From an uncultured Deinococcales bacterium (GTDB lineage Bacteria > Deinococcota > Deinococci > Deinococcales > JAAFIG01): DNA of 28,641 nucleotides. The notes beneath the pieces were generated by a model. It saw only the letters and a program-made list of their open reading frames with translations. It had not been told where the DNA came from and searched no databases. A program made the position numbers and the translations under genes. Location: assembly GCA_964247135.1 (NCBI GenBank), contig CAXTTL010000032.1, forward strand, positions 1-28,641, given 5' to 3'. Of the stretch, positions 9,467 through 23,814 are shown one piece after another (the first letter of the stretch is position 1; each line of letters begins with the position of its first letter).

Positions 9467-12400
9467 TCAATTGGAGCGTTGACGTTCACCGATTTCTTGT
9501 AAGGTTCCAGTCAGTCCAGTCACCCGTCCTCGAGCATTTTTGATGGGCCAGGCGGTGATTTCGACCAGACCGACGGAAACGTCTTTTTTAAAGTAGCGTA
9601 CCTTGCACCATAAACTCTCAGAATCGCCTTGCAGCAGCGCCTCGAGCAAGATGCGCAATTGTTCGACGTCACTCGGGTGAATCAGGGTGATGAAAGCCTG
9701 CCCGAGCGCCTCGGAAATCTCAAAACCGGTAATTTTATGCCAGGCTGGACTGAGAAAACGCAATTTTGCATGTTCGTCGGTTTGAAAAATGACCTCTTCG
9801 ATGCCCTCGAGAATATCCTTGTACTGATTTTCGGCGTCTCTGGCTCTGCTGAATTGTTTGGCACGAACGATGGCGTTGGAGACGCGGTCTGCCAGGGCGC
9901 TGAGCACCCGCAGATCGTGCTGGTTTAAGATCAAGTCGTCAATGGTTTCGACGTTTAATACGCCCACCACCACGTTTTCATCGAACAGTGGGACGCAGAC
10001 TTCGCTCGAGAGTCCTTCAAAAGCGCCAATAAAATCGGGTTCGGTACTGATATCTTCGACCAAAATGGCTTTGGCGGTGCGGGCAACTTTGCCCATGACG
10101 CCGTGGTTGATGTTGACCCGATCAATCACATCTGGATAACCTACGGCGTGTTGCAAGACCAGATCAACACCCTCGAGCAGGTAAATGCTGACCAGTGGAT
10201 AATGGAAGAGTTTTGAGGTCAACTCGACAATCGTTTTGATCACATTTTTTGGGTCTAATTCCCTGGACAAGGCATTGCGGACCTGCTCGAGCAACTCGAG
10301 TTCGCGGGTTTGTTGTTGGCTGATGGCGAGCAGGCTGCGGTAACGCGCCTCCGATTCGCGCAGTTCAAGCTCGCGGCGGTTTTGTTCGGACAAATCGGTC
10401 AGCACCAGCACGGTTCCAATCACCTTGCCGGCGATCTTGCGCGGAATGCCGGTGACCGCCACCTCGAGCCTGGAGCCATCTTTTTTGATCATGGTGTTTC
10501 TTAAATTGGTGCTGATGCCGCGTTTGCGTTGCGCCCTCGCCATGCGAATCAGATCGTGTTCCTCGGGAACGATCAGTTCAATTGAATTCCTGCCAATGAA
10601 TTCTTCAACGCTGTAACCGAGCATTTTGGCAAAAGCGGGGTTGACATATTCGTACAATCCGTCGTTGTTGGTGATTGCCAGACCTTGCGACACAATGTTG
10701 GTCACCGACAGGGCATAATCGCGCTCCTGTCCCAAAGCCTCGATGGTTTGCTCGAGCTGAATGGTGGTGCTTTGCAACTCGAGTTCCTGAATTTTTTGTT
10801 CGGTCAACAGCGTCAAAACGCCAACCGTGCCTCGGAATTCGCCGTTGACCATTCTGGGAAAACCGTTCGCCAGCACTTCGATGATTTTCCCGTCGTTGCG
10901 GCGCACCCGATTGCGGTAGGCGCTGGAAACCCCGGCACGGCGCGAGACTGTTTCTTGCAGGTGAATCTCGAGGTCGCCTGGCACGATAAAATCTGTCGGC
11001 TTGCGCCCGACAAGCTCTTCGGGATTGGCAAATCCCAAGATTCTGGCTGCCGCAGGGTTGCTGTATTCGATAAAGCCCTCGCTGTTGGTGACACTCAGTC
11101 CCTGATCGACCACTTGGGTGATCAACAGGGCGTAATCCTGTTCGGCTTTCAGTTGTTTTTCCGCCTCGAGCAACTTTTCAACCGTGGCTTGCAGCTCGGT
11201 TTGAATCAGCATTTCGCTGGTTTGGTTGGTGATTAATGCCGTCGTTCCCTGATAGATGCCATTTTCAAACAGCGCCGAAACCGAAACCCGAGCGTAATAC
11301 TTGCCCCATTGTACGTTCGTGTCAAATGTTTGTCCTTGCAGGGCGCGTCTGACCGCCGCGAGGGCGTCAATGTTGTCTTGAAAAATCGTCTCGAGCGGCA
11401 GACCGATCATCTGATCGGGATTGGCGCTCAAAATATCAATCGCATTGCCTTCGATGCGGGTCAAGTTGCCGTGTTGGTCGCAGGCAATCAAAATAATTGG
11501 CAGTTGATCGATCAAATACTCGAGGCGCTCTTGGGTGCTTTCCAAATCTTTTTGCGCCCTGGTGCGCTCAGAGACGTCCACCGCCAAACCGCGTCCACCG
11601 ATCACCTTGTCGTCTTCAAGAATGGGCGACATGAAGACCTCATAGTAATTGTTGTCGCGCTCGAGGGTGTAATGCAATTTCTCGCCTGCCAGCACGGCAT
11701 TTAAACGATCATCGGCACCCATAAATCCGAATTCTTGGACTGGGCGCCCCAAAGACTTTGCCGAGACTTCGGGGGTCACGTCGCGCCCTTCGAGTAAGGT
11801 CACAATACCGTCTTGATCGTAGCCAATAAACAACACGGGCATGGCGGTGATGATGCTGGAAAGTTGTGCCTCGCGGGCTTTAAGCCTGGTTTCGGCAACG
11901 CTTCGGTCGGTCACATCGACGGCAATCAAACTGGTTCCAACCTTGCGGTGGTTCTCGACAATTGGGGTCACCCGAACCTCCAAGTGCTGCTCTTGCCAAA
12001 AAACAATGGTGCTGAACGATTCGCCAGCCATCGCCCGACGACCAATCTCGAGCAATGCCGGAAACTCGCGGTAGCTGTCAAAAAAGCTGCTGCCAACGAT
12101 GCTCAACGAGGAAATTCGGTTTTCAGTCAGACCGCGTCCCTCAAAAAAAGTGACGCGTCCAACGCGGTCAAGTTTCAAAATAATCACGGGTAAACTCGAG
12201 AGTAAAGTCTTGAGTTCGGTTTGCGCGGCTTCGGCTTGGGTTTCAGCCAGATGGCGGTCGGTCACATCGGCGGCGATGCAACTTGCGCCGATCATGACCC
12301 CATTTTCGATGATTGGACTGACCCAGGTTTCAAAATAGCGCCCGTTCCATTCCAACACCTCATCAAAGGTTTCACCTGCCAGGGCGCGTTGTATCGCCGC

Positions 12401-14194
12401 CAAGACCGAAGGACGGGTTTGGAATTCAGCCATGATGCTGTGACCAACAATTTCGTGATGCTCCTGGGGCACACCCATCTGCTGCAAGATTGCCAGGGCG
12501 CCGCCACCGAAGTAGGTGATCTGCCCTTGCAAATTGGTTTTGACCATCAAAATGGGCAGGCTCGAGGTGATGTTTGAAAGTTCGGCTTGGGTTCGCGCCA
12601 AGGCTTCGCGCGATCTGAACTCTTCGCTGATGTCAACTATAATTGCCGTTGCGCCGGTAACAAGCCCGTCAGGGTTGGCAATCGGCGACACCCAACATTC
12701 GCGGTAGGCACCCTCCCATTGGATGACCGCCGTGAACGACTCTCCGGCCAATGCGCGTTTTAAACCTGCAACCACGGTTTGATTTGAGCCGAACACCTCG
12801 AATGCCGAGCGACCCACCCGCTCGAGGCTGGTTTGCGGGGTGACGTCCCGACCCTCATAAAGGCTGATGATGCCATTAATATCAATCCGAGCGACCCGAA
12901 CAGGCAAGGCATCAATGATTTCGCGCAGTTGCATGTCGCTGGTGGATAAGGCGGTTTGGGCTTTGATGCGGTCGGTGATGTCAAAGGCAATTGCCCGTAG
13001 CCCAGTGCGTTTGTCACCGTCGAGCACTGGGGTCAGCCAGGTTTCAAAATGCCGTCCGTGCCAGCCAAAACTAAACGACAAACCTTCGCCGCGAATGGCG
13101 GCTTGAACCGCCTGAAGCATCTGCGGTTGTCCTTCAAAGACATCTTGCATCAATCGACCCACCAAGTCCCTGGACTCAAAGCCCAACATGCTGAGCGCCC
13201 GACCTTCGGCAAGGGTGATCGAACCGCGCATGTCCGTGCCGAGCACAAAAATCGGCAAATTGGATGTCAGCTCCCACAACCTCGCCTCGGAGCGCATCCC
13301 TTTCATTTCACTCGGGGCGCCCGTGATCGAGACGACGCCGACCACACTGTGAATGGTGTCCAAAATCGGCGACATCGAAACCCGAACGTTGACCCGAAAA
13401 CCGGACTTGTGAACCCGCTGGGTTTCAAACGGGGCAATTTTCTCGCCGAGCATCATGCGTTGAATAAAACCCTGCACCGAGGTGTTGTTGGCTCGAGGGA
13501 TCAGAAAACTGATGTGCTGCCCAACCGCCTCGGAGGTCGCGTAACCAAACATTTTTTCGGCACCAATATTCCAGGAGGTCACAATCCCCTGCAAGTTCTC
13601 GGTGATGATCGCCTCATCGGTCGAATTCACCACCCGCTCGAGGATGCTGCGGTTGAGGGCATCCATCATTTCCCTGGGGGTTTCTTTGGCTTGCACCAAT
13701 TCGAGTCGCAAATCGAGTTCGCCCATCAAGGACTCTGACAGGCTCTCGAGGATCGTGACCTCGCTTTCGGTCAAGCTGCGCTCTCGGGTGTCGAGCACGC
13801 ACAAACAACCCAGGACTTGCCCTGTCGCGGTGCGCAGCGGCGAACTGGCAAAAAACCCCAGGCGTTCGATGCTCGAGGACAACAGGCTCGAGATGGTTTG
13901 CAGGTCGCTCGGGTCACGCGATTGCACCAAACCCTCGGGCAAAAACAACGATAAACGTTTTGGCAGGGTGCGCGGCAACAGGTCATTGAGTTCCAGCCCG
14001 TAAGCGCCAGCAAAGCGCAGGCTGGCTTCTCCGACCCAACAAATCAGTGCGCCTTTGGCGTTTAAACTCTTGGCGGCAAGTTTGGCGACCCGTGCAAAAT
14101 TTGCGGAAGCATCTTGACGAACCGACCCGTAACGCCGGAGCGCAGCCAGGCGTTCAGGGTCGGTGAGACTCGGCTCGCTGACCTGGGTTCGCAT
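9467..14194 (-). CDS. Large GAF/multi-PAS sensor protein (GAF-PASx9-GAF-PAS) with no output domain
   Basis: N-terminal 'ERLAALRRY...FFASSPL...LGCLCVLD' GAF, repeated PAS units ending in D(I/V)TDR, and a second GAF 'GVMGKVART...SEVCVPL...VVGVLNV'. Start set at ATG 14194 on promoter geometry. Confidence 0.85.
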   Translation of the reverse strand: MRTQVSEPSLTDPERLAALRRYGSVRQDASANFARVAKLAAKSLNAKGALICWVGEASLRFAGAYGLELNDLLPRTLPKRLSLFLPEGLVQSRDPSDLQTISSLLSSSIERLGFFASSPLRTATGQVLGCLCVLDTRERSLTESEVTILESLSESLMGELDLRLELVQAKETPREMMDALNRSILERVVNSTDEAIITENLQGIVTSWNIGAEKMFGYATSEAVGQHISFLIPRANNTSVQGFIQRMMLGEKIAPFETQRVHKSGFRVNVRVSMSPILDTIHSVVGVVSITGAPSEMKGMRSEARLWELTSNLPIFVLGTDMRGSITLAEGRALSMLGFESRDLVGRLMQDVFEGQPQMLQAVQAAIRGEGLSFSFGWHGRHFETWLTPVLDGDKRTGLRAIAFDITDRIKAQTALSTSDMQLREIIDALPVRVARIDINGIISLYEGRDVTPQTSLERVGRSAFEVFGSNQTVVAGLKRALAGESFTAVIQWEGAYRECWVSPIANPDGLVTGATAIIVDISEEFRSREALARTQAELSNITSSLPILMVKTNLQGQITYFGGGALAILQQMGVPQEHHEIVGHSIMAEFQTRPSVLAAIQRALAGETFDEVLEWNGRYFETWVSPIIENGVMIGASCIAADVTDRHLAETQAEAAQTELKTLLSSLPVIILKLDRVGRVTFFEGRGLTENRISSLSIVGSSFFDSYREFPALLEIGRRAMAGESFSTIVFWQEQHLEVRVTPIVENHRKVGTSLIAVDVTDRSVAETRLKAREAQLSSIITAMPVLFIGYDQDGIVTLLEGRDVTPEVSAKSLGRPVQEFGFMGADDRLNAVLAGEKLHYTLERDNNYYEVFMSPILEDDKVIGGRGLAVDVSERTRAQKDLESTQERLEYLIDQLPIILIACDQHGNLTRIEGNAIDILSANPDQMIGLPLETIFQDNIDALAAVRRALQGQTFDTNVQWGKYYARVSVSALFENGIYQGTTALITNQTSEMLIQTELQATVEKLLEAEKQLKAEQDYALLITQVVDQGLSVTNSEGFIEYSNPAAARILGFANPEELVGRKPTDFIVPGDLEIHLQETVSRRAGVSSAYRNRVRRNDGKIIEVLANGFPRMVNGEFRGTVGVLTLLTEQKIQELELQSTTIQLEQTIEALGQERDYALSVTNIVSQGLAITNNDGLYEYVNPAFAKMLGYSVEEFIGRNSIELIVPEEHDLIRMARAQRKRGISTNLRNTMIKKDGSRLEVAVTGIPRKIAGKVIGTVLVLTDLSEQNRRELELRESEARYRSLLAISQQQTRELELLEQVRNALSRELDPKNVIKTIVELTSKLFHYPLVSIYLLEGVDLVLQHAVGYPDVIDRVNINHGVMGKVARTAKAILVEDISTEPDFIGAFEGLSSEVCVPLFDENVVVGVLNVETIDDLILNQHDLRVLSALADRVSNAIVRAKQFSRARDAENQYKDILEGIEEVIFQTDEHAKLRFLSPAWHKITGFEISEALGQAFITLIHPSDVEQLRILLEALLQGDSESLWCKVRYFKKDVSVGLVEITAWPIKNARGRVTGLTGTLQEIGERQRSN

Positions 14195-14201
14195 GGGACG
14201 C

Positions 14202-14230
14202 AGGATGACTCGGGGTTTTACGAGTGTCAA
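14202..14230 (-). promoter_or_regulatory. Sigma70-type promoter of the PAS gene (leaderless geometry)
   Basis: TTGACA (14230-14225)-N17-CATCCT (14207-14202)-N7-ATG (14194). The ORF-track TTG start coincides with the -35 box. Confidence 0.6.
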
Positions 14231-14422
14231 AAATTACCTCAGAGAAACGAAAAATATGAAATGCAAAGAAATCTTAAAATTGAGTTTTGAAGTTGAAGTC
14301 CGACCTCCCCAGTTTACCTGAGCGTTTGATTATGACAAGGCAAGAATCTACTTTGCCAACAAACGTTAAAGGATTCAACGAAAACCACAGTGCCATGGCG
14401 ACAAATCGGTCAGAATAAGACC

Positions 14423-16024
14423 ATGAACCTCAACCATCAACCGTATCCCTCAAATCGCAGTCCAATCCTCGGCGCAAAGGGTGCCGTCGCCACCAGTCAA
14501 CCCTTGGCAGCCCAAGCCGGACTCGAGATGCTAAAAGCCGGTGGCAACGCCGTCGATGCCGCCATCGCCACGGCGGTTGCGCTCACGGTGCTCGAACCAA
14601 CCTCCAACGGTATCGGCGGTGATGCGTTTGCACTGGTTTGGGACGGCAACAAACTGCACGGTTTGAACGCTTCGGGTCGAGCGCCCGAACGCATGAACCC
14701 CGAGTTGTTCTCGGCTCGAGGGTTGTCCGAAGTGCCCAGACTCGGTTGGTTGCCCGTGACCGTACCCGGTGCGCCCAGCGCCTGGCGCGATTTGCACGCC
14801 AAGTTTGGCAAACTCGAGTTTGAAGCTTTGTTTGGACCGGCAATTTATTACGCGCAACATGGCTATCCAGTCTCTCCAACGTTGGCACAAAATTGGCGGC
14901 GTGCCGCGCAGGTGTACTCGGGTTTGACAAGTCCAGAATTTCTACCCTGGATGCAGACGTTCACCCGAGACGGTCAGGCACCAAAAGCGGGTGAAATGTT
15001 CTCGCTGCCAGATCACGCGAAAACCCTGGCAATGATTGCCAAAACCCGAGCGCAAGCCTTTTACGACGGCGAACTTGCCGGTCGGATTGAAGATTTTGCG
15101 GCGCAAACCGGTGGTTTCATCACCCGCGCCGACCTCAGGGCGCACACTGCCGATTGGGTCGAGCCGATCAGCACCAACTACCGTGGCTACGATGTCTGGG
15201 AAATCCCACCCAACGGACAGGGCATCGCCGCATTGGCGGCACTCAATATTCTCCAAGGATTTGACCTCTCGACACACGCTCGAGATACCGTTGAGAGTTA
15301 TCATTTGCAAATTGAAGCCATGAAACTGGCGTTTATGGACGCTCGGGCTTTGGTTGCCGACCCCAGCCAAGCCGAAGTGCCGACGGCTGGAATGCTCGAC
15401 AAGAATTATGCCGAAGTGCGCCGCAAATTGATCCTCGAGACGGCGCTTGAACCCAGCGCGGGAACGCCACCGCGCGGCGGCACGGTCTACCTTTGCACCG
15501 CCGATCAGGACGGCATGATGGTCAGTTACATTCAAAGCAATTACGCCGGTTTTGGCAGTGGCATCGTGATTCCAGGAACCGGAATTGCCCTGCAAAACAG
15601 GGGTGCAAATTTTAACCTGATTCCAAACCACCCCAACCAGATTGCCCCAGGAAAACGCCCGTACCACACCATCATTCCTGGGTTTTTGAGCAAAGACCAA
15701 CAAGCCATCGGACCCTTTGGCGTAATGGGCGGCTTTATGCAACCTCAAGGTCACGTTCAAATGATGGTCAACACCGTTGATTACCACCTCAACCCGCAAG
15801 CCAGCCTCGACGCGCCGCGCTGGCAGTGGTTGGAAGGCAAGAATATCGAACTCGAGCTTCACACGCCCACCCACATTGCCGAGGGTTTGCGTGAACGCGG
15901 ACATCAGGTCACGATGCAGCTCGAGAAAGGTTCGTTTGGACGCGGGCAGATCATTTGGCGAATCAATGACGTGTTGGTGGCGGCTTCGGACTCGAGGACG
16001 GACGGTCAGGCGTTGGCGTTTTAG
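14423..16024 (+). CDS. ggt: Gamma-glutamyltransferase family protein
   Basis: 'VATSQPLAAQAG...GGNAVDAAIA', 'GIGGDAF', 'EIPPNGQG', autocleavage/catalytic Thr in 'GGTVYL', 'KRPYHTIIPG' and 'GVMGGFMQPQG'. ATG 14423 is preferred over GTG 14390. Confidence 0.92.
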   Translation: MNLNHQPYPSNRSPILGAKGAVATSQPLAAQAGLEMLKAGGNAVDAAIATAVALTVLEPTSNGIGGDAFALVWDGNKLHGLNASGRAPERMNPELFSARGLSEVPRLGWLPVTVPGAPSAWRDLHAKFGKLEFEALFGPAIYYAQHGYPVSPTLAQNWRRAAQVYSGLTSPEFLPWMQTFTRDGQAPKAGEMFSLPDHAKTLAMIAKTRAQAFYDGELAGRIEDFAAQTGGFITRADLRAHTADWVEPISTNYRGYDVWEIPPNGQGIAALAALNILQGFDLSTHARDTVESYHLQIEAMKLAFMDARALVADPSQAEVPTAGMLDKNYAEVRRKLILETALEPSAGTPPRGGTVYLCTADQDGMMVSYIQSNYAGFGSGIVIPGTGIALQNRGANFNLIPNHPNQIAPGKRPYHTIIPGFLSKDQQAIGPFGVMGGFMQPQGHVQMMVNTVDYHLNPQASLDAPRWQWLEGKNIELELHTPTHIAEGLRERGHQVTMQLEKGSFGRGQIIWRINDVLVAASDSRTDGQALAF

Positions 16025-16061
16025 AATGCTCGGAAACCACCAACAGCTTGACAAGGACGCC

Positions 16062-16823
16062 ATGCAAGCCCTGCAAAATATACCCAAAAATATTTCCAAT
16101 CTTGCACCAATCATCATTTCATCACCCACCACCCGATGCGGCACAACGCTGTTGCAACGTTTGCTGTGCTCGAGCCAGAACGGTGTGGTGTTTGGTGAAT
16201 TCTGTGCGATGGACATGGATTCGTATTTGGATGTTTTTCTGAAACACATCGAGCGCTATCAGAACCATCGTCAGCATCTTGACCTCAGCCTCGAGAAATT
16301 TAGCAATGGTCAGCTTAACGACTGGATTCTGGATTTAACGCCCGAATTGGAACCATATTTGATGGTACTCGCCAAGGCATGTTTTTTGGGTTTGGAACAT
16401 TGCGAAGCCCAAGCCTTGGCGCTGGGTCGCACAGTTTGGGGGATCAAAAAGCCAGGTTTTAAACCAGCCTCACTGAACGCTTTGAAGTTGATGATGCCGA
16501 ATTTTAAACTGCTCTACATTTACCGCGATGTCTTCGAGTGTGCGCAATCTGCCAAAGCCCGAGGCGATTTGAAATCGCTCGAGGATTTCAAAACCTATAC
16601 GCAAGTTTGGGTGCAAAACCTGTTGTTTGTCCTTAAATTTTACCAATTCGAGAACAAGCTCTTGATCCATTACCGCGACCTTATTCAACAACCGGAGGTT
16701 TGGTTGGAACAAATCTCGAGCTTTACCCTCATGGAAGGCATGGACAAAAGCATTCTCAATTTTAAGGTGAACACCAACCGCAACCAGACCAATCCAGAAG
16801 GTTATATTCAACCCGCCGTCTAA
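16062..16823 (+). CDS. PAPS-dependent sulfotransferase-like protein, possibly truncated 22 codons early
   Basis: 5'-PSB loop 'TRCGTTLLQRLL', 'WGIKKP', 3'-PB 'YIYRDVFECAQS' and 'IHYRDL'. AAGGA precedes ATG 16062 (alternative ATG 16026). Confidence 0.75.
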   Translation: MQALQNIPKNISNLAPIIISSPTTRCGTTLLQRLLCSSQNGVVFGEFCAMDMDSYLDVFLKHIERYQNHRQHLDLSLEKFSNGQLNDWILDLTPELEPYLMVLAKACFLGLEHCEAQALALGRTVWGIKKPGFKPASLNALKLMMPNFKLLYIYRDVFECAQSAKARGDLKSLEDFKTYTQVWVQNLLFVLKFYQFENKLLIHYRDLIQQPEVWLEQISSFTLMEGMDKSILNFKVNTNRNQTNPEGYIQPAV

Positions 16824-16962
16824 ACCAAAACAGAATGGCAAGCGATTGAAACGCTGAGTGCGAATGTCCGCAAACACCTGATCAAATGACCAGTGGGCAG
16901 TTTCAGACAATTTGCCGAAAAATGGCACCATCAAATCTATGTTACATTCAAGCCAAATCAAC

Positions 16963-17418
16963 ATGAAACAAAGCAAACATCCGGCATTCGACATTCCCAA
17001 ACCCGAAACCAAAGCCTGGTCGCTCGAGGATTGGGGGTTGTTGCTCGAGGCTGGTTTCACCCTGGCAAGGGCGCGTCTTTTGGTGCGGCGCACGCCATTT
17101 CCCAAGTTGGCAAAACGCTTCGGGCAACTGGATTTGGAAACGCCCAAAGACACCCCAAACCAAAAAGCTGAAAAAATAGGTTGGGCGGTCAAGACCGCTG
17201 CCAAGTGTGTGCCGTGGCGCAGCGAATGCCTCGAGCAAGCGGTCTGTGCCAAACTGACGCTCAAGCAAAAACGCTATCCGAGCACCATGTATTTTGGGAC
17301 GTTGCGCAATGGTTTGGCGTTGCAAGCCCACGCCTGGGTGCGTTGTGGCAATCTGGTGGTGGTGGGCGATGTTGGGCATCAGGTTTTTATTCAAATCGCT
17401 GTTTACGGCGATGATTAA
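16963..17418 (+). CDS. Lasso peptide leader peptidase (B2 protein, transglutaminase-like)
   Basis: 'PWRSECLEQA' with the catalytic Cys, 'MYFG' and 'AHAWVRCG' with the catalytic His. Adjacent to the RRE and cyclase genes. Start codon uncertain (16939 or 16963). Confidence 0.9.
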   Translation: MKQSKHPAFDIPKPETKAWSLEDWGLLLEAGFTLARARLLVRRTPFPKLAKRFGQLDLETPKDTPNQKAEKIGWAVKTAAKCVPWRSECLEQAVCAKLTLKQKRYPSTMYFGTLRNGLALQAHAWVRCGNLVVVGDVGHQVFIQIAVYGDD

Positions 17419-17432
17419 ATTTTGGAGGTTTT

Positions 17433-17714
17433 ATGGGCTTAACTTTGGATTCAACCGTGTGGCTCGAGCAACAAAAGTTTGTCGAAGCCCCCGAAGGAGA
17501 GGTGTTGTACATGATGAACCAGCAAACGGGTTCGTACTTGTACCTCAACGAGGTCGCCACCGTCATCTGGAAACAACTTAAAAGTCCAATTCAAGTCTCG
17601 AGCCTTTGTCAGCACTTCGAGCGGAAGTTTGAAGTCAGTCCCCACGAGTGTCAGGCGGAGGTCTTGCGGGTGCTCGGGCAACTCGAGCGAATGGGCAGTT
17701 TGCAGGTTCGATGA
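17433..17714 (+). CDS. RiPP recognition element (lasso B1 / PqqD family)
   Basis: 93 aa, 'YLYLNEVATVIWKQL...FEVS...EVLRVLGQL..MG'. SD GGAGG at 17424-17428. ATGA overlap with the cyclase start. Confidence 0.9.
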   Translation: MGLTLDSTVWLEQQKFVEAPEGEVLYMMNQQTGSYLYLNEVATVIWKQLKSPIQVSSLCQHFERKFEVSPHECQAEVLRVLGQLERMGSLQVR

Positions 17715-19642
17715 GTGCCATTTTTGGCGTGTGTCGATTGGATGGCAGCCCTGCCGAAACTGATTTGAGCGCCATGCAGTAGGCTTTGCGCCATTGGGGA
17801 AACGATGGCGGTTCGGTCTGGACTGAAAGGCATGTGGGTTTGGGACTGTGCTCGAGGCAGATCACACCGGAATCTGTGTTTGAAAAATCCTCGTATCAAA
17901 TTTGTGCTGGCACGGTCAGTTTGGTTGCCGCCGCGCGTTTGGACAACCGCAGCGAACTCTGCACCGCGTTTGGATTGGATTCCAGCCAAAGTGCCATCAC
18001 CAGCGACCTCGCGTTGATCGCTCGAGCCTATGAACGCTGGGGGCAAGATTGCGTGCATCGCTTGCTTGGCGATTGGTCCTTTGCCGCCGTTCACCACCAG
18101 ACAAATCGCTTTTTTCTTGCCCGCGACCATTACGGCAACACGGGTTTGCATTACTGCCAGGTGGGGAACCATTTTGCCTTTGCTTCGGGCATTGAAGGTT
18201 TGTTGGCGATCAAAGGAATGCCGAAAAAGGTCAACGATCAAAAAATTGCCCAAATGCTGATCGTTTGGCTGCACGACGGCTCGAGCACCTATTACCAAGA
18301 CATCATGCGCCTGCCCCCCGCGCACAGTCTCAGTTTTGAAAACGGCACACTCAAACTCGAGCGGTACTGGCAACTCGAGAACACGCCAAGTCTGCGTTTG
18401 CGCTCGAGCCAAGAGTATGTCGAATGTTTTTTAAGTATTTTTCGGACTGCCGTGCATGACCGAATGCGCTCGAGATTTCCTGTGGCAACCACGCTCAGTT
18501 CGGGTTTGGATTCTGGGGCGGTGACGGTGCTGGCTGCCCAAGCCGCTCGAGAGCGCAACGAACGCTTGACCGCGTTCACCTCCGTTCCGGTGCATGACCT
18601 GGATTTCCCCGATCAAGCCCGCCTGGACAACGAATGGGATTTGGCACACCTGACCAGCGTTTTTACTGGCAACATCGATCACGTGCCCATTCCCGCCAGT
18701 CAGCCGACACCGATTGCGGCAATTCGCTTGGCAACTGGCATCTTGCACGAACCACCATTTGCGGCGGCGAACGGTTATTGGATTCAATCGATCCTCGAGC
18801 AAACCCGTGCCAGTGGTTTTGGGGTGTTGTTGACCGGATAACTCGGCAACGGTGCGGCATCGTATTCGGGTGGTTCGTTCGTGGTTTGGCACGCGCTGCG
18901 GCAATTGCAGTTTGGTTTGGCAACTCGTGCGTTTTCTTCGGCTGCAATAATGCAAGGCAGCGTGTTTAAAACCGTGCTCTCCGAGATCGTGCAGCCTTTG
19001 GTGAAGTCGCTCAAAGCCTCGAGCGCTTTCATTTCGGGAACACGTTTTGACAACCCACAATGGGCGCTTCATGCCCACATTTCCTGCAACTTGATAAACC
19101 GAATTCAGTTGCTCGAGCAAGTTAAAAAAGCCAATTGGCTGGGCGGAGAAAACCAAAATCTGTCTTCTCCTCGAGCGCAAATGTTTGACTTGTTGCAGCC
19201 CCGCACAATGGTTGTTGGCGCGGCTTGGAACAGTTACTCGGGGGCTTACGGCATCGAAATTCGTGACCCCACGATGGACAAACGGTTGCTCGAGTTTTGC
19301 GTGGGTGTCCCCACGGAACAGTTTATTGGGAAAGGTTACAGCCGTTTTTTAATGCGTCGCGCCATGCAAGGTTTGCTGCCCAAACAAGTACAATGGAACG
19401 TCAAAAAAGGGGTTCAAGCCGCCGATCTTGGCGAACGGCTACGGCAAACCGCTCCAGAAGTCGAAGCGGCTTTGCTCGAGATTAAGTTACAGCCAAACGT
19501 GGGAAATTATCTTGACCTCAACCGTCTCGAGTCCACTTGGCAACGCCTCAAACATCACAACCCAGAGAAATTGGATGCCAATTCGTTGCTGCGAGCGATT
19601 TCGATGGGTTTGTTTTTGCTCCAATTCGAGGATTGTTCTTAA
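17711..19642 (+). pseudogene. Lasso cyclase (asparagine synthetase-like, C protein) interrupted by two in-frame stops
   Basis: A single 643-codon frame from ATG 17711 (MSAIFG...) with 'ARLDNR.EL', 'GDWSFA', 'LARDHYG', PP-loop 'LSSGLDS', 'LLTG*LGN', 'RDPTMDKRLLEFC' and 'LMRRAMQGLLP'. Stops: TAG 17780-17782 and TAA 18839-18841. Confidence 0.9.
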
Positions 19643-19654
19643 CAGCAATTTTAT

Positions 19655-19684
19655 TGCTAGAATGTGGAATCAATTTCAAGGAGG
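19655..19684 (+). promoter_or_regulatory. Extended -10 promoter and Shine-Dalgarno site for the precursor gene
   Basis: TGcTAGAAT at 19655-19663; AAGGAGG at 19678-19684; ATG at 19689. Confidence 0.6.
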
Positions 19685-19688
19685 GTTT

Positions 19689-19847
19689 ATGAATCTCGAG
19701 CCAAAAAATTCAAATGCCACTGAGGTCCAAAACGATGTGCCACGCAAAACCTGGATTGCACCCGTGGTTGAAGAAATCGAGTTTCGAGATACCAGCTTTG
19801 GCGCAAACTCCACTTTTGTTGATGGCTCATTTGTGAGTAGCACTTAA
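19689..19847 (+). CDS. Lasso peptide precursor (A), 52 aa
   Basis: MNLEPKNSNATEVQNDVPRKTWIAPVVEEIEFRDTS-FGANSTFVDGSFVSST. It has a paeninodin-type WxxPxV leader motif, Thr at -2, Asp at core position 9 and a strong SD. Confidence 0.88.
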   Translation: MNLEPKNSNATEVQNDVPRKTWIAPVVEEIEFRDTSFGANSTFVDGSFVSST

Positions 19848-19888
19848 CCAAACATTTTGATCGATCACAAAATGTCACGGGTTTTTTC
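19846..19888 (+). terminator. Hairpin plus U tract directly after the precursor gene
   Basis: Stem ACATTTTG/CAAAATGT with a possible outer AACC/GGTT pairing, followed by a T run. Confidence 0.5.
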
Positions 19889-19902
19889 ATTTCACGCAGC
19901 AA

Positions 19903-19940
19903 CCCCTCGAGCAATTTTAAAGCTCGAGGGGCTTTGATTT
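19903..19940 (+). terminator. Second hairpin after the precursor gene, built from two CTCGAG copies
   Basis: Perfect 10-bp inverted repeat CCCCTCGAGC (19903-19912) / GCTCGAGGGG (19922-19931), then CTTTGATTT. Confidence 0.65.
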
Positions 19941-20015
19941 GAGCCTTTGTGCTTGTTACACTTGGACAGTCATGAAGATGAAGACCGCTCGAGAAATTTT
20001 GAAAACGGAATCGTT

Positions 20016-20993
20016 TTGAAGTCTTTTTACGACCACCAGGTTTTTGGCTGGCATCTGCGATCCAACATCGCCCTGCCATGTCAACCCCGCCTCGAGCCTG
20101 GAACACCAGATTGCGTTCTGGATGTGATCGAAACCTTCAATTTTACCGAAACCAACCCAGCATTCTCGAACATTGATGTGCTTCGGACTTCAAAAATTCA
20201 AACGGTTTGGAAGAACGCCGCTGGGGACTGGCGGCTCGAGTACCAAATACCAGAACACGATCTTCACATCCGGGTGGACGTGACTGGCGTGGGTCGGCGC
20301 ATTCTGGTGCGTTACAACCAGTCTAAAAGTTTAAAAAGTCTTCCATTCATGGTGTTGGGGTCGGTGCTGGCGGCTTGTTTGTGGCAGGCTGGCAAGGTCT
20401 GCTTGCATGGTGGCATGGTGGTTTCTGGCGGCACTGGTCTGATGGTCATGGGGGCTTCTGGGGCGGGAAAATCCAGCACGCTCGGCGCTCTTATGCAGCT
20501 TGGTTGCCCAATCCTGACCGAAGATGTGGTGGTGCTTGCGCCCAACGATTTGAATGCGCCTTGTGGACCCATTTACTTGCGATTGTGGTCAGATTCGGCG
20601 CTCGCACTTGGTTTTGACCCAAGCACCATGCCGCTCGTGTTCCAACCCGAAAGCAATTTGGGCGAGAAGCGTTACCTCGAGTTGGCTGCAACTCGGTTTG
20701 AGCAAAACCTCAAAAGTGTGCCCCTGTCGCACGTGTTCATTTTGGCTGGCAGGAAAGAAATATCCAAACCAAAGCTGACCACCTTAAGCCCAAAAGATGC
20801 CGTGCCACAACTGATGAACAACCTCTATCGAGGCATTCGATTTGATCTTGAACTTCGCAGTCAGCAGGCTTTTGCCACCTGCGTGAATCTCGCACACCAA
20901 TGCCGCGTCAGTTTGGTGAAGGTGCCTGCCAACCTCGAGCGACTTCCAGAACTGGCAGATTCGCTGCTCGAGGCTATGGAACTTGTGGCTTGA
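20016..20993 (+). CDS. HPr-kinase-like P-loop kinase (lasso peptide kinase type)
   Basis: N-terminal 'VFGWHLRSNIALP', 'CLHGG', Walker A 'GASGAGKSST' and 'ILTEDVVVL'. Directly downstream of the precursor. Start uncertain (TTG 20016 versus TTG 19947). Confidence 0.8.
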   Translation: MKSFYDHQVFGWHLRSNIALPCQPRLEPGTPDCVLDVIETFNFTETNPAFSNIDVLRTSKIQTVWKNAAGDWRLEYQIPEHDLHIRVDVTGVGRRILVRYNQSKSLKSLPFMVLGSVLAACLWQAGKVCLHGGMVVSGGTGLMVMGASGAGKSSTLGALMQLGCPILTEDVVVLAPNDLNAPCGPIYLRLWSDSALALGFDPSTMPLVFQPESNLGEKRYLELAATRFEQNLKSVPLSHVFILAGRKEISKPKLTTLSPKDAVPQLMNNLYRGIRFDLELRSQQAFATCVNLAHQCRVSLVKVPANLERLPELADSLLEAMELVA

Positions 20994-21006
20994 GTTTAGC
21001 CAGGTT

Positions 21007-23814
21007 TCAAACCAACACGGCAAGGGGTTCATCTTGCACAGGCTCGAGCGCCAAAGCCACAGCGTCTTGAAAACCCAAACTCGAGGCGTCCAATTCGATC
21101 CGAGCGACTTCAATCGCGTTTAAACCATGCTCGAGTTTCAAGTATTGGGTGCTGGATTTGACCCTTTCATTCAACTTTGAGCCGATCCGATTCAGGATGG
21201 TTTCCGCCGCAAGTAACAACTTTAGCGCCTTTGACGTTCGTCCCAGACCATGCTCGAGTTGCGCGAAATCGACCAAGACGTGCGCCGCAGACCATTGCCG
21301 CCCGAGTTGCACAACCGTTTGCAAGGCTTCTCGCAAATGGTTTCGAGCCGCGATAGACTGCCCGTTTCGTCTTGCCAAATTCCCCAAAGCTTGCAGACCG
21401 TTGGCGATGCCCTGAACGTCGTTCGCCTCGCGTTTGACCTTTAAAGATTGCTCGAGCAGACTGGTCTCCAAGCCGGTGTCGCCCTGCAAACCGGCAATAT
21501 TTCCCAGATAACCCATCGAATACGCCGCGCCAATTGGATCGTTCAGGCTGCGTTTTAAAGCCAGCGCTTTGGCAAAACACACTTTGGCAGCCTCGAGATC
21601 GTTCTGGTACAAGAACACCAAGCCAAGATCGTTGTTGCACATCGCAATCTGATTGGTGTTGGCGTGTACTTCATGCAGGGCAATTGCAGCCTCGAGATGG
21701 TCTTTGGCGGCGGTTAAATTCCCGAGGTCGCGTTCAATCAGACCAAAAAACTTTTGAGAATTGGCGCGTAGTTGCGAATCGCCCAGCGCCTCGCCAATCG
21801 CTTGATATTCGACGACTGCGGCTCGAGCCACCCCGTACTGCGATTGCTCTTTGCCCAAACTGGCGATCATCCAGAGCAAATGCGCCCGAACCCAATCCTG
21901 GGTTTGGGTTTGTGGACATGCCGCAAAACGCTGTCCCCAACTTAAACCCTCTTTGTGATGACCGCGCGTGTTCCAAAAATGCTCGAGCAACCCCACCGTT
22001 TCCGCCCCAAGCCTGGGGTTGTGCGTCAAACACCACTCGAGCGCTGGGCGAATGTTCTCGAGTTCAAGTTCTACGCGGCGACTCATTTCGGCATGTCGGA
22101 TGCTGTTGCGTTCTGGATACCAAGCCCGGCTTAAACCGAGCGCAAGTTCGCTCAAATTGCTCATGGCGTCATGTTTTGCTGGGTCGCCGAGTTCCAAAAA
22201 TGCGTACTGCCGGATCAACTCGTGCAAATAAAACCTCGAGTCACGTTTGGAGACCATCGATTTGTTGATCAATTTCAAGACCACATTGAGGCTCGAACCA
22301 CCGACCTTCAGCGCCCAGTCACGGCTAAAACTGCCACGAAACACGCTCAAACGCGCCAAGGCGGTTTTTTCGGATTCGGTCAATAAAATCCAAGAATAAG
22401 CAAAGGTCGCGGCAAAACTGCGTTGACGTGCAGGCACGTCCGAACGGTCTGTCTCGAGGAGGTTTAAACTGGTTTCGAGTTCGCCTGCAATCTCGGTCAG
22501 GGTCAGCGCCCGCACCCAACTTGCCGCCAACTCGAGTCCGAGCGGAATGCCCGACACGGCGCGGTAAATTCGGGTAAAACTGTGAATGTCATCCTCAAAA
22601 TGAAAATTTGGATCGACGCGCTGCGCCGCTTTGAGAAACACCAGCGCAGCATCCTGAGTCTCGAGCGGAAAAAGATTATCAGGGGCGGGCAAACCCGCAA
22701 TCTCAATCAGGTTTTCAAAACTCAAGCCAAGCGCCTCACGGCTGGTTGCCAAAATGCGAAGCTGGTGGCATTTTTCCAAGAGCATTGCCACGAATATGTC
22801 AATGCCTGGAAGATGCTCGAGGTTATCCAGCACCAAAAACAATTCTCGCTCGCTCAAGACCTCGAGCAGCATGATGGTGGAATTGACCGAACCGCTGACC
22901 CCCAAAGCCTCGAGGATACTGTCTGGTACAAGGTCAACGCTACCAACGCCGGCGAGCGGCACAAAGCACGCGCCGATTGAAAATTGTTGCTGATATTGCG
23001 TGGCAATCGCGATTGCCAAACGGGTTTTGCCCGCGCCACCCACGCCGACCAAGGTCATCAATCGGCAAGTCTGGTCTTGAAAGCGCTCGTCGATCAGTTG
23101 CAGTTCAGAATGTCGCCCAATCAAATCCGTTGTTGAGATCGGTAAGTGGGCTGAGATTTGCGAAACGCTCGAGTTTGAACCAGCCAATGTTCTTAAGATT
23201 TCGTCGCTCGGCTCGAGGTCAAGGTCGCGCAAGGCTTTGGCGTGAATGGCAAAGGTTTTCTGACGTTGCTGAACGTTGGTGCATAAGCCCAGGTGAGCCT
23301 GCAACAACTCCTCGGACAATGGTTCTAGTTGAATGGCATTTTCCAGCATTGAAATGGCGGAATCTGGCTCGAGTATGCCCACAGCCTTTAAAACGGCATC
23401 GCGGTACGCAGCAGCCATTTTTTCACGCTCGAGCATCAAGATTGCCTCGAGGTCATTGAGGTTGGGCAAGTCTGCACCGTGTAAGAATTCGCCCCGATAA
23501 AGCGAAATCGCCTCGAGCCAGTTATGGTTGTTGATTGCGGCTCGGAATGCCGACACGTCGCTTAAACCATCGAACCGCACACGGTTGGCGTCGGCGACCA
23601 AACCAAGACCATATTCAAAACCTCGAGCGCGATACAGCAATTGCCGCAGGCGTTTGCGCCCAATGTCTTCGGGGACATCACCCCACAGCAACAACACCAG
23701 TTCGGCTCGAGACACCCAGCTTCGGCGGCAGATCAACACAGCGATCAAAAAAGTGACGCGCTCGAGCGGAACGGCGGTGTTTGAAAATCTGGCTTCGCCC
23801 AAAAGTCTTAACAC
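21007..23814 (-). CDS. BTAD/SARP-like + NB-ARC-type ATPase + TPR regulator (STAND class)
   Basis: N-terminal 'SRAELVLLLW...LRQLLYR...SDVSAF...LYRGEFL', 'LIGRHSEL', Walker A 'GVGGAGKTRLA', Walker B 'LVLDNLEH', 'GIPLGLELAA' and C-terminal TPR repeats. Confidence 0.88.
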   Translation of the reverse strand: MLRLLGEARFSNTAVPLERVTFLIAVLICRRSWVSRAELVLLLWGDVPEDIGRKRLRQLLYRARGFEYGLGLVADANRVRFDGLSDVSAFRAAINNHNWLEAISLYRGEFLHGADLPNLNDLEAILMLEREKMAAAYRDAVLKAVGILEPDSAISMLENAIQLEPLSEELLQAHLGLCTNVQQRQKTFAIHAKALRDLDLEPSDEILRTLAGSNSSVSQISAHLPISTTDLIGRHSELQLIDERFQDQTCRLMTLVGVGGAGKTRLAIAIATQYQQQFSIGACFVPLAGVGSVDLVPDSILEALGVSGSVNSTIMLLEVLSERELFLVLDNLEHLPGIDIFVAMLLEKCHQLRILATSREALGLSFENLIEIAGLPAPDNLFPLETQDAALVFLKAAQRVDPNFHFEDDIHSFTRIYRAVSGIPLGLELAASWVRALTLTEIAGELETSLNLLETDRSDVPARQRSFAATFAYSWILLTESEKTALARLSVFRGSFSRDWALKVGGSSLNVVLKLINKSMVSKRDSRFYLHELIRQYAFLELGDPAKHDAMSNLSELALGLSRAWYPERNSIRHAEMSRRVELELENIRPALEWCLTHNPRLGAETVGLLEHFWNTRGHHKEGLSWGQRFAACPQTQTQDWVRAHLLWMIASLGKEQSQYGVARAAVVEYQAIGEALGDSQLRANSQKFFGLIERDLGNLTAAKDHLEAAIALHEVHANTNQIAMCNNDLGLVFLYQNDLEAAKVCFAKALALKRSLNDPIGAAYSMGYLGNIAGLQGDTGLETSLLEQSLKVKREANDVQGIANGLQALGNLARRNGQSIAARNHLREALQTVVQLGRQWSAAHVLVDFAQLEHGLGRTSKALKLLLAAETILNRIGSKLNERVKSSTQYLKLEHGLNAIEVARIELDASSLGFQDAVALALEPVQDEPLAVLV

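Follow-up and report, generated by a model that had tools for sequence, protein, structure and literature searches.

Does a run of six genes in an uncultured Deinococcales bacterium specify a working pathway to a lasso peptide, and would that peptide be phosphorylated, sulfated, or both? The genes lie on the + strand at 16062-20993 of a 28,641-nt window, the whole stretch of DNA analyzed here, which is contig C32 of a metagenome-assembled genome (MAG; G000; 5.09 Mb in 386 contigs, 84% completeness). The reading that we regard as quite probable is that of a kinase-type, paeninodin-like lasso cluster that acquired a sulfotransferase, was recently knocked out in G000, and survives as a working version in a sister genome, G005. 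The host had been placed in the Deinococcota, and the contig titles of three sister genomes in the genus, among them the G005 contig L044, agree: they read 'MAG: Deinococcales bacterium'.

A lasso peptide gene set with a kinase and a sulfotransferase

The original prediction had named, in this order, a sulfotransferase, a B2 leader peptidase, a B1 recognition element (RRE) of the kind found in pathways to peptides that are made on the ribosome and modified after translation (RiPPs), a cyclase, a precursor and a kinase, with ggt upstream and a convergent regulator downstream. Order, positions and flanks were borne out, as was the claim that the sulfotransferase and precursor genes are hidden in longer open reading frames (ORFs; 15777-16823 and 19428-19847). 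Family models matched five of the six cluster proteins, with identical best models for the intact orthologs. The call of a lasso cluster that has B1 and B2 split, an HPr-kinase-like gene and an adjoining sulfotransferase is upheld.

B2 (16912-17418, +), an open transglutaminase-like frame, matched NF033537 at 81.7 bits (cut-off 33) and PF13471 with an E value of 8e-21. B1 (17433-17714, +), an open PqqD-like frame, reached 50.1 bits with PF05402 (cut-off 23.4). NF033535 was the best model for both pieces of the cyclase pseudogene (17711-19642, +), an asparagine-synthetase-like lactam synthetase (271 bits, E 2e-80, and 106 bits, E 2e-30). The expectation that these three proteins would match lasso hidden Markov models therefore held for B2, above the NF033537 cut-off, and for B1, above that of PF05402; the cyclase was best matched by NF033535 yet fell below its cut-off. 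The HPr-kinase-like lasso kinase (19947-20993, +; a TTG near 20016 is a candidate start instead) has an open frame and gave matches below cut-off to PF07475 (E 9e-5; 22.5 bits, cut-off 33.3) and TIGR04352 (E 1e-4). The sulfotransferase (16062-16889, +; PF13469 E 9e-11, PF00685 E 1.6e-7) belongs to the type that uses 3'-phosphoadenosine 5'-phosphosulfate (PAPS), resembles protein-tyrosine sulfotransferases (TPSTs), and is a pseudogene or truncated gene in G000. The precursor gene (19689-19847, +) has an AGGAGG ribosome-binding site upstream and encodes 52 aa that match no Pfam or NCBIfam model and that were aligned to the precursors of relatives. The six genes are packed like an operon: 22 nt separate the end of the sulfotransferase frame (TGA) from B2, 14 nt B2 from B1, and 46 nt the cyclase from the precursor, and the B1 stop and the cyclase start overlap as ATGA.

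An intact sister cluster and empty sites

Searching related genomes for an intact syntenic cluster, as had been proposed, was successful. Contig C20 of G005 shares the gene order of G000, from ggt through sulfotransferase, B2, B1, cyclase (here intact) and precursor (two genes) to kinase and regulator. Its cyclase is a 666-aa open frame, 73% identical to that of G000, and the B2 orthologs are 72% identical. At the corresponding site in G002 (contig C483) and G003 (contig C604), the convergent ggt and regulator genes are separated by 5 bp, and the block is absent; in G001 (contig C982), also lacking the block, ggt is followed by a remnant of the regulator end. The ggt gene was not found in G004. 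Because two sites are empty, one holds ggt and a remnant, and the G005 site is occupied, the 4,982-bp block (16025-21006, bounded by the stop codons of ggt and the regulator), sulfotransferase included, is a single insertion/deletion unit. We also considered ggt (14390-16024, +; a gamma-glutamyltranspeptidase, PF01019 E 5e-159) as a member of the cluster and the regulator as specific to it; both ideas were rejected, as both genes are present at the empty sites.

The block ends showed only short chance repeats around CTCGAG and no mobile-element signatures, and no tRNA gene was found in the window. The original prediction had held that the CTCGAG density of the cluster matches that of its host. 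It does: the 4,932-bp cluster has 34 sites, against a genome-wide mean of 32.8 (standard deviation 7.9; 833 windows of the same size), and since the density is close to the genome-wide level, the composition of the block is native. The block may have been gained long ago, or it may have been lost from the other genomes.

The hexamer is itself unusual. CTCGAG occurs 181 times in the window, where shuffled sequences would lead one to expect 4.8, and 33,925 times (6.66 per kb) in G000, and it also supplies the stems of hairpins between genes. No other hexamer of this genome is as common: the runners-up, all overlapping with it, are less than half as frequent, and the next palindrome is roughly ten times rarer. 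A limited literature search found no description of such over-representation in Deinococcota.

All five enzymes are under purifying selection. Between G000 and G005, with synonymous divergence near saturation, the ratio of nonsynonymous to synonymous substitution rates (dN/dS) was 0.17 for the sulfotransferase, 0.15 for B2, 0.11 for B1, 0.20 for the cyclase and 0.23 for the kinase, a range of 0.11-0.23; the flanking ggt and regulator gave 0.10 and 0.15. These values suggest that the cluster genes were functional for most of their history.

Premature stops in the source genome

The cyclase had been described as split, and it is. In-frame stops at codon 24 (TAG, 17780-17782) and codon 377 (TAA, 18839-18841) interrupt its frame, which runs from ATG at 17711 to TAA at 19640-19642, and a frameshift was excluded; the homology to lactam synthetases is clear, and an intact one is missing from this copy. 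A third stop, absent from the earlier account, is a TAA at 16821-16823 (sulfotransferase codon 254). It costs that enzyme its last 21 residues, which leaves the G000 cluster without a full-length open sulfotransferase gene; past it, 21 in-frame codons with clear homology lead to a TGA at 16887-16889. At the three sites G005 has CGA (17780), CAG (18839) and TTG (16821), that is, Arg, Gln and Leu. The position of the second cyclase stop is Gln in four of four homologs, and that of the sulfotransferase stop is a near-invariant Leu (22/24 family members). There are no frameshifts relative to G005 anywhere in the cluster.

As a baseline for internal stops, the ORFs of ~365 kb of G005 were aligned to G000, and alignments were retained when substitutions fell mainly at third codon positions, with fewer at the second than at the first (198 of 426; 228 were dropped); each retained alignment then lost its first 70 and last 10 columns to trimming. 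The cluster has three internal stops in 1,579 codons, compared with two in 61,716 codons of the 198 other genes (Poisson P ~2e-5, a post hoc test that gives an order of magnitude only). Among the 66 tRNAs found in G000 by ARAGORN, in an assembly that is 84% complete, no suppressor with a CUA or UUA anticodon was seen. Given three stops against so low a baseline and the lack of such a tRNA, the pathway in G000 is most likely dead, and a lasso peptide would not be expected from this copy.

Two other explanations of the stops would leave the enzymes whole. Consensus errors or a chimera of strains could have created them in a pathway that is intact and active; G000 is a fragmented and incomplete MAG, the stops are known from its consensus, and neither frameshifts nor a missense excess accompany them, which is odd for a decaying locus. 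We consider this quite improbable, as the same assembly has so few internal stops elsewhere, chance would hardly produce three independent substitution errors in 2 kb, and lasso genes of G005 are damaged too: its second precursor gene (L013:8173-8331) has an in-frame TAA where G000 has CAA, and the cyclase of its second cluster (L014:7163-7429) changes frame near the 3' end. Alternatively, full-length proteins might still arise if TAA and TAG were read through, whether in a programmed way or by means of a suppressor tRNA. All three stops and that of the second G005 precursor are indeed TAA or TAG, and two of these four stand at Gln positions; G000 has three tRNA-Gln(UUG) genes. The absence of CUA and UUA anticodons noted above speaks against readthrough, as do the Arg and Leu codons replaced by the other two stops, the use of TAG (ggt) and TAA (cyclase, precursor) to terminate ordinary genes of the window, and the efficiency that two stops in one gene would demand; we find the idea barely credible.

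The preferred reading, a genuine knock-out, also seems to be a recent one. Relative-rate tests, with paralogous clusters or stand-alone sulfotransferases as outgroups, showed no excess of G000-specific amino-acid changes: the cyclase had 24 unique changes in G000 and 43 or 39 in G005, and all other genes gave p > 0.15. Low dN/dS combined with these tests argues that the genes were long functional and were knocked out recently. Three nonsense codons with neither extra missense changes nor frameshifts go somewhat beyond what simple drift would be expected to leave; possible causes of that pattern are selection for loss or a consensus that merges strain-level knock-outs.

Origin of the sulfotransferase

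The sulfotransferase retains the invariant segment P-T-x-R-x-G-T-T-L-L-Q-R-L-L, and R25, G27, T28, T29, R155 and S163 are invariant in all 24 sequences aligned, so both the 5'-phosphosulfate loop and the 3'-phosphate Arg...Ser are present. We take the conserved loop and the R...S segment to be the PAPS-binding motifs, as the alignment with TPST1 agrees. With a family profile, the best relatives of solved structure were protein-tyrosine sulfotransferases (E 2e-8), ahead of cytosolic sulfotransferases. An APS kinase gene in G000 (E 8e-60; APS, adenosine 5'-phosphosulfate) means that PAPS can be made.

A word-indexed search returned 27 proteins at E <= 1e-5. Scanning with a single peptide pattern, with one genome per species and hence not exhaustively, turned up 53 loci; they belong to Deinococcales, Acidobacteriota, Chloroflexota, Pseudomonadota, Bacteroidota and further groups, and a Bacillota title was not among them. 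In a maximum-likelihood tree, the lasso-linked pair from G000 and G005 formed a clade with support of 100/100 and a stem of 0.64. Its sister (98/92) was a stand-alone group, 47-54% identical and with a stem of 0.22, that holds three copies from Deinococcales MAGs. We interpret this as the duplication of a resident TPST-like gene followed by its recruitment into the lasso block. That recruitment was probably separate from those in Firmicutes, because the enzyme appears to be a local duplicate of a stand-alone gene and the 53-locus scan returned no Bacillota title.

The precursor, the kinase and a proposed pathway

The G000 precursor (MNLEPKNSNATEVQNDVPRKTWIAPVVEEIEFRDTSFGANSTFVDGSFVSST) has a WxxPxV leader motif (WIAPV), a threonine (Thr35), a single acidic residue (Asp45), and a Ser-Ser-Thr end. 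Six precursor genes were found 3' of a cyclase: one in G000, two in the G005 cluster, and one in each of three paralogous clusters (G005:C74, G004:C185 and G014:C92). Across the six, the leader is conserved, the core is hypervariable, and each core has one acidic residue. In an alignment of four of them, from G000, G005, G004 and G014, nine positions are invariant (K20, W22, P25, E28, I30, E31, F32, D34 and T35), next to a hypervariable C-terminal part; the WxxP motif, near-invariant in paeninodin-like leaders (PMC13381572), is thus kept in 4/4, W22 and P25 alike. With Thr35 at position -2, where nearly every known precursor has its threonine, the core starts at Phe36 and the predicted ring has 9 residues in G000, 8 in both G005 precursors and 10 in the three paralogs. 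With the cut placed one residue later, Thr at -3, the rings become 8, 7, 7, 9, 9 and 9. The core tails are 7 residues long with few bulky residues. The C-terminal residue is Thr in G000, His and Asn in G005, and Asn, Thr and Phe in the paralogs, and Ser is next to last in five of the six.

Over the segment that holds the His, the P-loop and Asp-Asp, the kinase can be aligned with Lactobacillus casei HPrK (1jb1; E 0.03). H152, K173 and D191 are invariant in 13/13 aligned sequences. The motif given for lasso HPr-kinase homologs is His-Lys-Asp-Asp (PMC9266682); its first Asp, just ahead of D191, is replaced by Glu in G000 and G005, while ten of the other eleven sequences have Asp. Its family is small: besides the window's own protein, four proteins at least 41% identical were found among 5.8 billion sequences. 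PF27840 appears as a precomputed assignment on distant relatives.

By analogy with characterized families, the WxxPxV leader of the 52-aa precursor would be bound by the B1 RRE, and the HPr-kinase-like enzyme would phosphorylate a tail serine, for which the Ser next to the C-terminus is the best candidate. B2 would then remove the leader after the conserved Asp-Thr-Ser region, and the ATP-dependent cyclase would close the ring between the new N-terminus and the single Asp. Finally, the sulfotransferase might add sulfate from PAPS to a hydroxyl. Since the precursor lacks tyrosine, the acceptor would necessarily be Ser or Thr; this is the weakest step, with chances that are close to evenly balanced. 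Modifications of pseudomycoidin are said to help keep the thread in place (PMC6993621), and they may play a similar part here.

Evidence that weighs on the proposed pathway

Several observations weigh against the preferred reading. Intact cyclases score 377-411 bits on NF033535 (377 for the G005 ortholog), short of its cut-off of 525. B1 also falls short of its best NCBIfam model, the Bacillus-type NF033536 lasso_PqqD_Bac (45.2 bits, cut-off 80), and of NF033530, and the kinase is below all curated cut-offs. The block has no exporter gene. The three stops are those of the assembly consensus; the one DNA sequencing run found shared 0.05 of the sampled words, with one 35-base match (18029-18063) at 80% likeness, and no RNA run was listed. 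Cleavage with Thr at -2 would need Phe as first residue and, in the paralogs, 10-residue rings. Neither is reported in the available parts of the sources, where known ring sizes are 7-9 residues (PMC6993621) and first core residues are Gly, Cys, Ser, Ala and, lately, Asn (PMC12670498); Thr at -3 would fit the sizes, with an unusual position for the threonine.

The acceptors are a further difficulty. Paeninodin-type kinases target a C-terminal Ser (PMC8498205, PMC9266682), a residue described as extremely conserved in kinase-linked precursors (PMC9266682), and the precursors here lack it. BsfK phosphorylates Ser3 (PMC10368454), and so provides a precedent for other kinase sites. Tyr, the residue modified by TPSTs, is absent from the G000 precursor and from both G005 precursors. 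As the precursors have neither a C-terminal Ser nor a Tyr, the sites used by the kinase and the sulfotransferase must differ from those in characterized examples.

These facts bear most on the sulfotransferase, which might instead be a passenger captured in the block that acts on another cellular substrate, leaving a peptide that is only phosphorylated. Homologs of B2, B1, cyclase or kinase (tblastn E <= 1e-3) occur at just one of the 53 loci of its family, that of the G005 ortholog, 34 of the 53 loci being at least 12 kb long. The 37 neighboring proteins scanned at eight family loci included no RiPP gene and no recurring partner. G000 itself has a second, intact copy, 52% identical (C5:39319-40146), among genes for a SpoU methylase, a histidine kinase and a sigma factor. 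Together with the missing Tyr, this makes the passenger a serious contender, if one that falls somewhat short of an even chance. What counts against it is that the sulfotransferase sits within a block that comes and goes whole, 22 nt from B2 on the same strand, that purifying selection has acted on it (dN/dS 0.17), that its stem after duplication is long (0.64 vs 0.22), as for a change of substrate, and that sulfotransferases recur beside kinase-type lasso clusters of Firmicutes (PMC8498205, PMC4289311). The sulfated peptide, one option in the original prediction, goes further than the evidence does: its basis consists of adjacency, joint presence and absence in the block, and purifying selection, set against a family that is lasso-linked at 1/53 loci and precursors that lack Tyr.

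For the acquired sulfotransferase as part of the lasso pathway, the reading we prefer, a more specific version can be drawn for G005. There the TPST-like duplicate would O-sulfate Ser or Thr of a Tyr-less core of 14-16 residues, the sulfate and a phosphate on the next-to-last Ser would plug a tail of small residues, and the nonsense codons would represent a selected switch-off and not drift. We think it unlikely that all of this holds; if it did, the peptide would be the first sulfated lasso peptide and would reveal a new type of acceptor for the sulfotransferase family, and the ring might begin with Phe or, in the paralogous clusters, comprise ten residues.

Related clusters and known systems

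Close cyclase homologs (E <= 1e-120) occur among 41 relatives in G005 (at two places), G004, G016 and G014. The paralogous clusters G005:C74 (L014:7760-10422), G004:C185 (L015:2740-5399) and G014:C92 (L016:8617-11270) carry a PqqD-TylF O-methyltransferase fusion, followed by a ~545-aa protein without a Pfam match; both lie between precursor and kinase, and a sulfotransferase is lacking. Since these clusters have the fusion and the ~545-aa protein in place of the sulfotransferase, the lineage exchanges tailoring genes on a shared B2-B1-C-A...K scaffold. In the wider phylum, NF033537 was above cut-off in 123 of 364 Deinococcota genomes (a tally that includes the unpublished G327), which is not a count of lasso clusters, because many matches lie in frames of ~450 aa and Deinococcus radiodurans is also matched. 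A limited literature search found no paper on lasso peptides of Deinococcota.

The nearest characterized systems are those for paeninodin (Paenibacillus dendritiformis) and pseudomycoidin (Bacillus pseudomycoides). Like them, the present cluster has split B1 and B2, an asparagine-synthetase-like cyclase, an HPr-kinase-like kinase and a WxxP leader, and its B1 is best matched by a Bacillus-type model (NF033536). Unlike them, it has the order sulfotransferase-B2-B1-C-A-K, its block includes neither an ATP-binding cassette exporter nor a nucleotidyltransferase, its precursor ends in Thr (His and Asn in G005) instead of the C-terminal Ser targeted by their kinases, its kinase has Glu-Asp where ten of 13 aligned sequences have Asp-Asp, and its host belongs to Deinococcales, not Bacillota.

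That some kinase-type clusters include sulfotransferases, as the original prediction stated, agrees with PMC8498205 and PMC4289311; such clusters were noted in Firmicutes in 2014-2016. There, as here, the sulfotransferase is first in the cluster and its role is uncharacterized; the enzyme of the present cluster differs in deriving from a local duplicate, and the likeness seen is one of gene combination. A literature check that was not exhaustive found no report on the function of sulfotransferases beside kinase-type lasso clusters. To speak of an undescribed pathway was thus an overstatement, with the gene combination known for years in Firmicutes and the G000 copy bearing three nonsense codons.

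The bsf cluster of Bradymonas sediminis (PMC10368454) is likewise of the kinase type, outside Bacillota, and uses an acceptor other than a C-terminal Ser (Ser3). It also departs from Thr(-2), having Ile(-2), as does the second G005 precursor. It differs in its YxxPxL leader, in its Gly1-Asp8 and in relatives that carry N and D genes, and the paper as consulted describes no sulfotransferase. With TPST1 and TPST2 (PDB 5wrj, 3ap1), which sulfate peptides, the sulfotransferase shares a 5'-phosphosulfate loop of the R-[SC]-G-T-T-L type and the R...S segment; the similarity is weak (37 bits over ~100 residues), and the lasso precursors here have no Tyr.

Other features of the window and genomes

Between precursor and kinase lies a GC-rich hairpin of 10 bp (19903-19931, +) with one CTCGAG in each arm. 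The fold of 19845-19950 reached -33.7 kcal/mol (z -4.67), and none of 200 shuffled sequences folded as well; CTCGAG hairpins of a similar kind lie 3' of both G005 precursor genes. The hairpin is likely an attenuator or a transcript stabilizer. Scanning 14100-21200 for promoters and terminators gave no more hits than shuffled sequences would lead one to expect, and Rfam gave no matches at gathering threshold within the window.

The convergent regulator (21007-23814, -), outside the block, is a 935-aa AfsR/SARP-like protein with matches to BTAD, AAA, NB-ARC and TPR domains; G000 has at least ten more places with 27-39% identity to this AAA/TPR protein. At 9467-14230 (-), the window encodes a 1,587-aa protein made up almost entirely of PAS domains with one GAF domain and, in Pfam, no recognizable output domain. 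Real genes are overlain by very long spurious ORFs in another frame or on the opposite strand, such as one of 435 aa antisense to ggt (14942-16249, -), and these mask short genes. Among the 66 tRNAs that ARAGORN found in G000 are one for Ile whose anticodon is TAT and three tRNA-Gln genes (TTG). The IMP dehydrogenase of G014 (L016:2939-5629, 896 aa) has a Hint (intein-type) domain within its IMPDH domain.

Implications

What is new at this locus is a Deinococcales variant of an already known type of lasso cluster, one that combines kinase and sulfotransferase. The intact G005 ortholog, rather than the broken copy in G000, is the object worth testing. At five kilobases, the block makes the genus a compact test case that comes with a clean natural control: two genomes have it, two others lack it precisely, and a third retains ggt and a remnant of the regulator.

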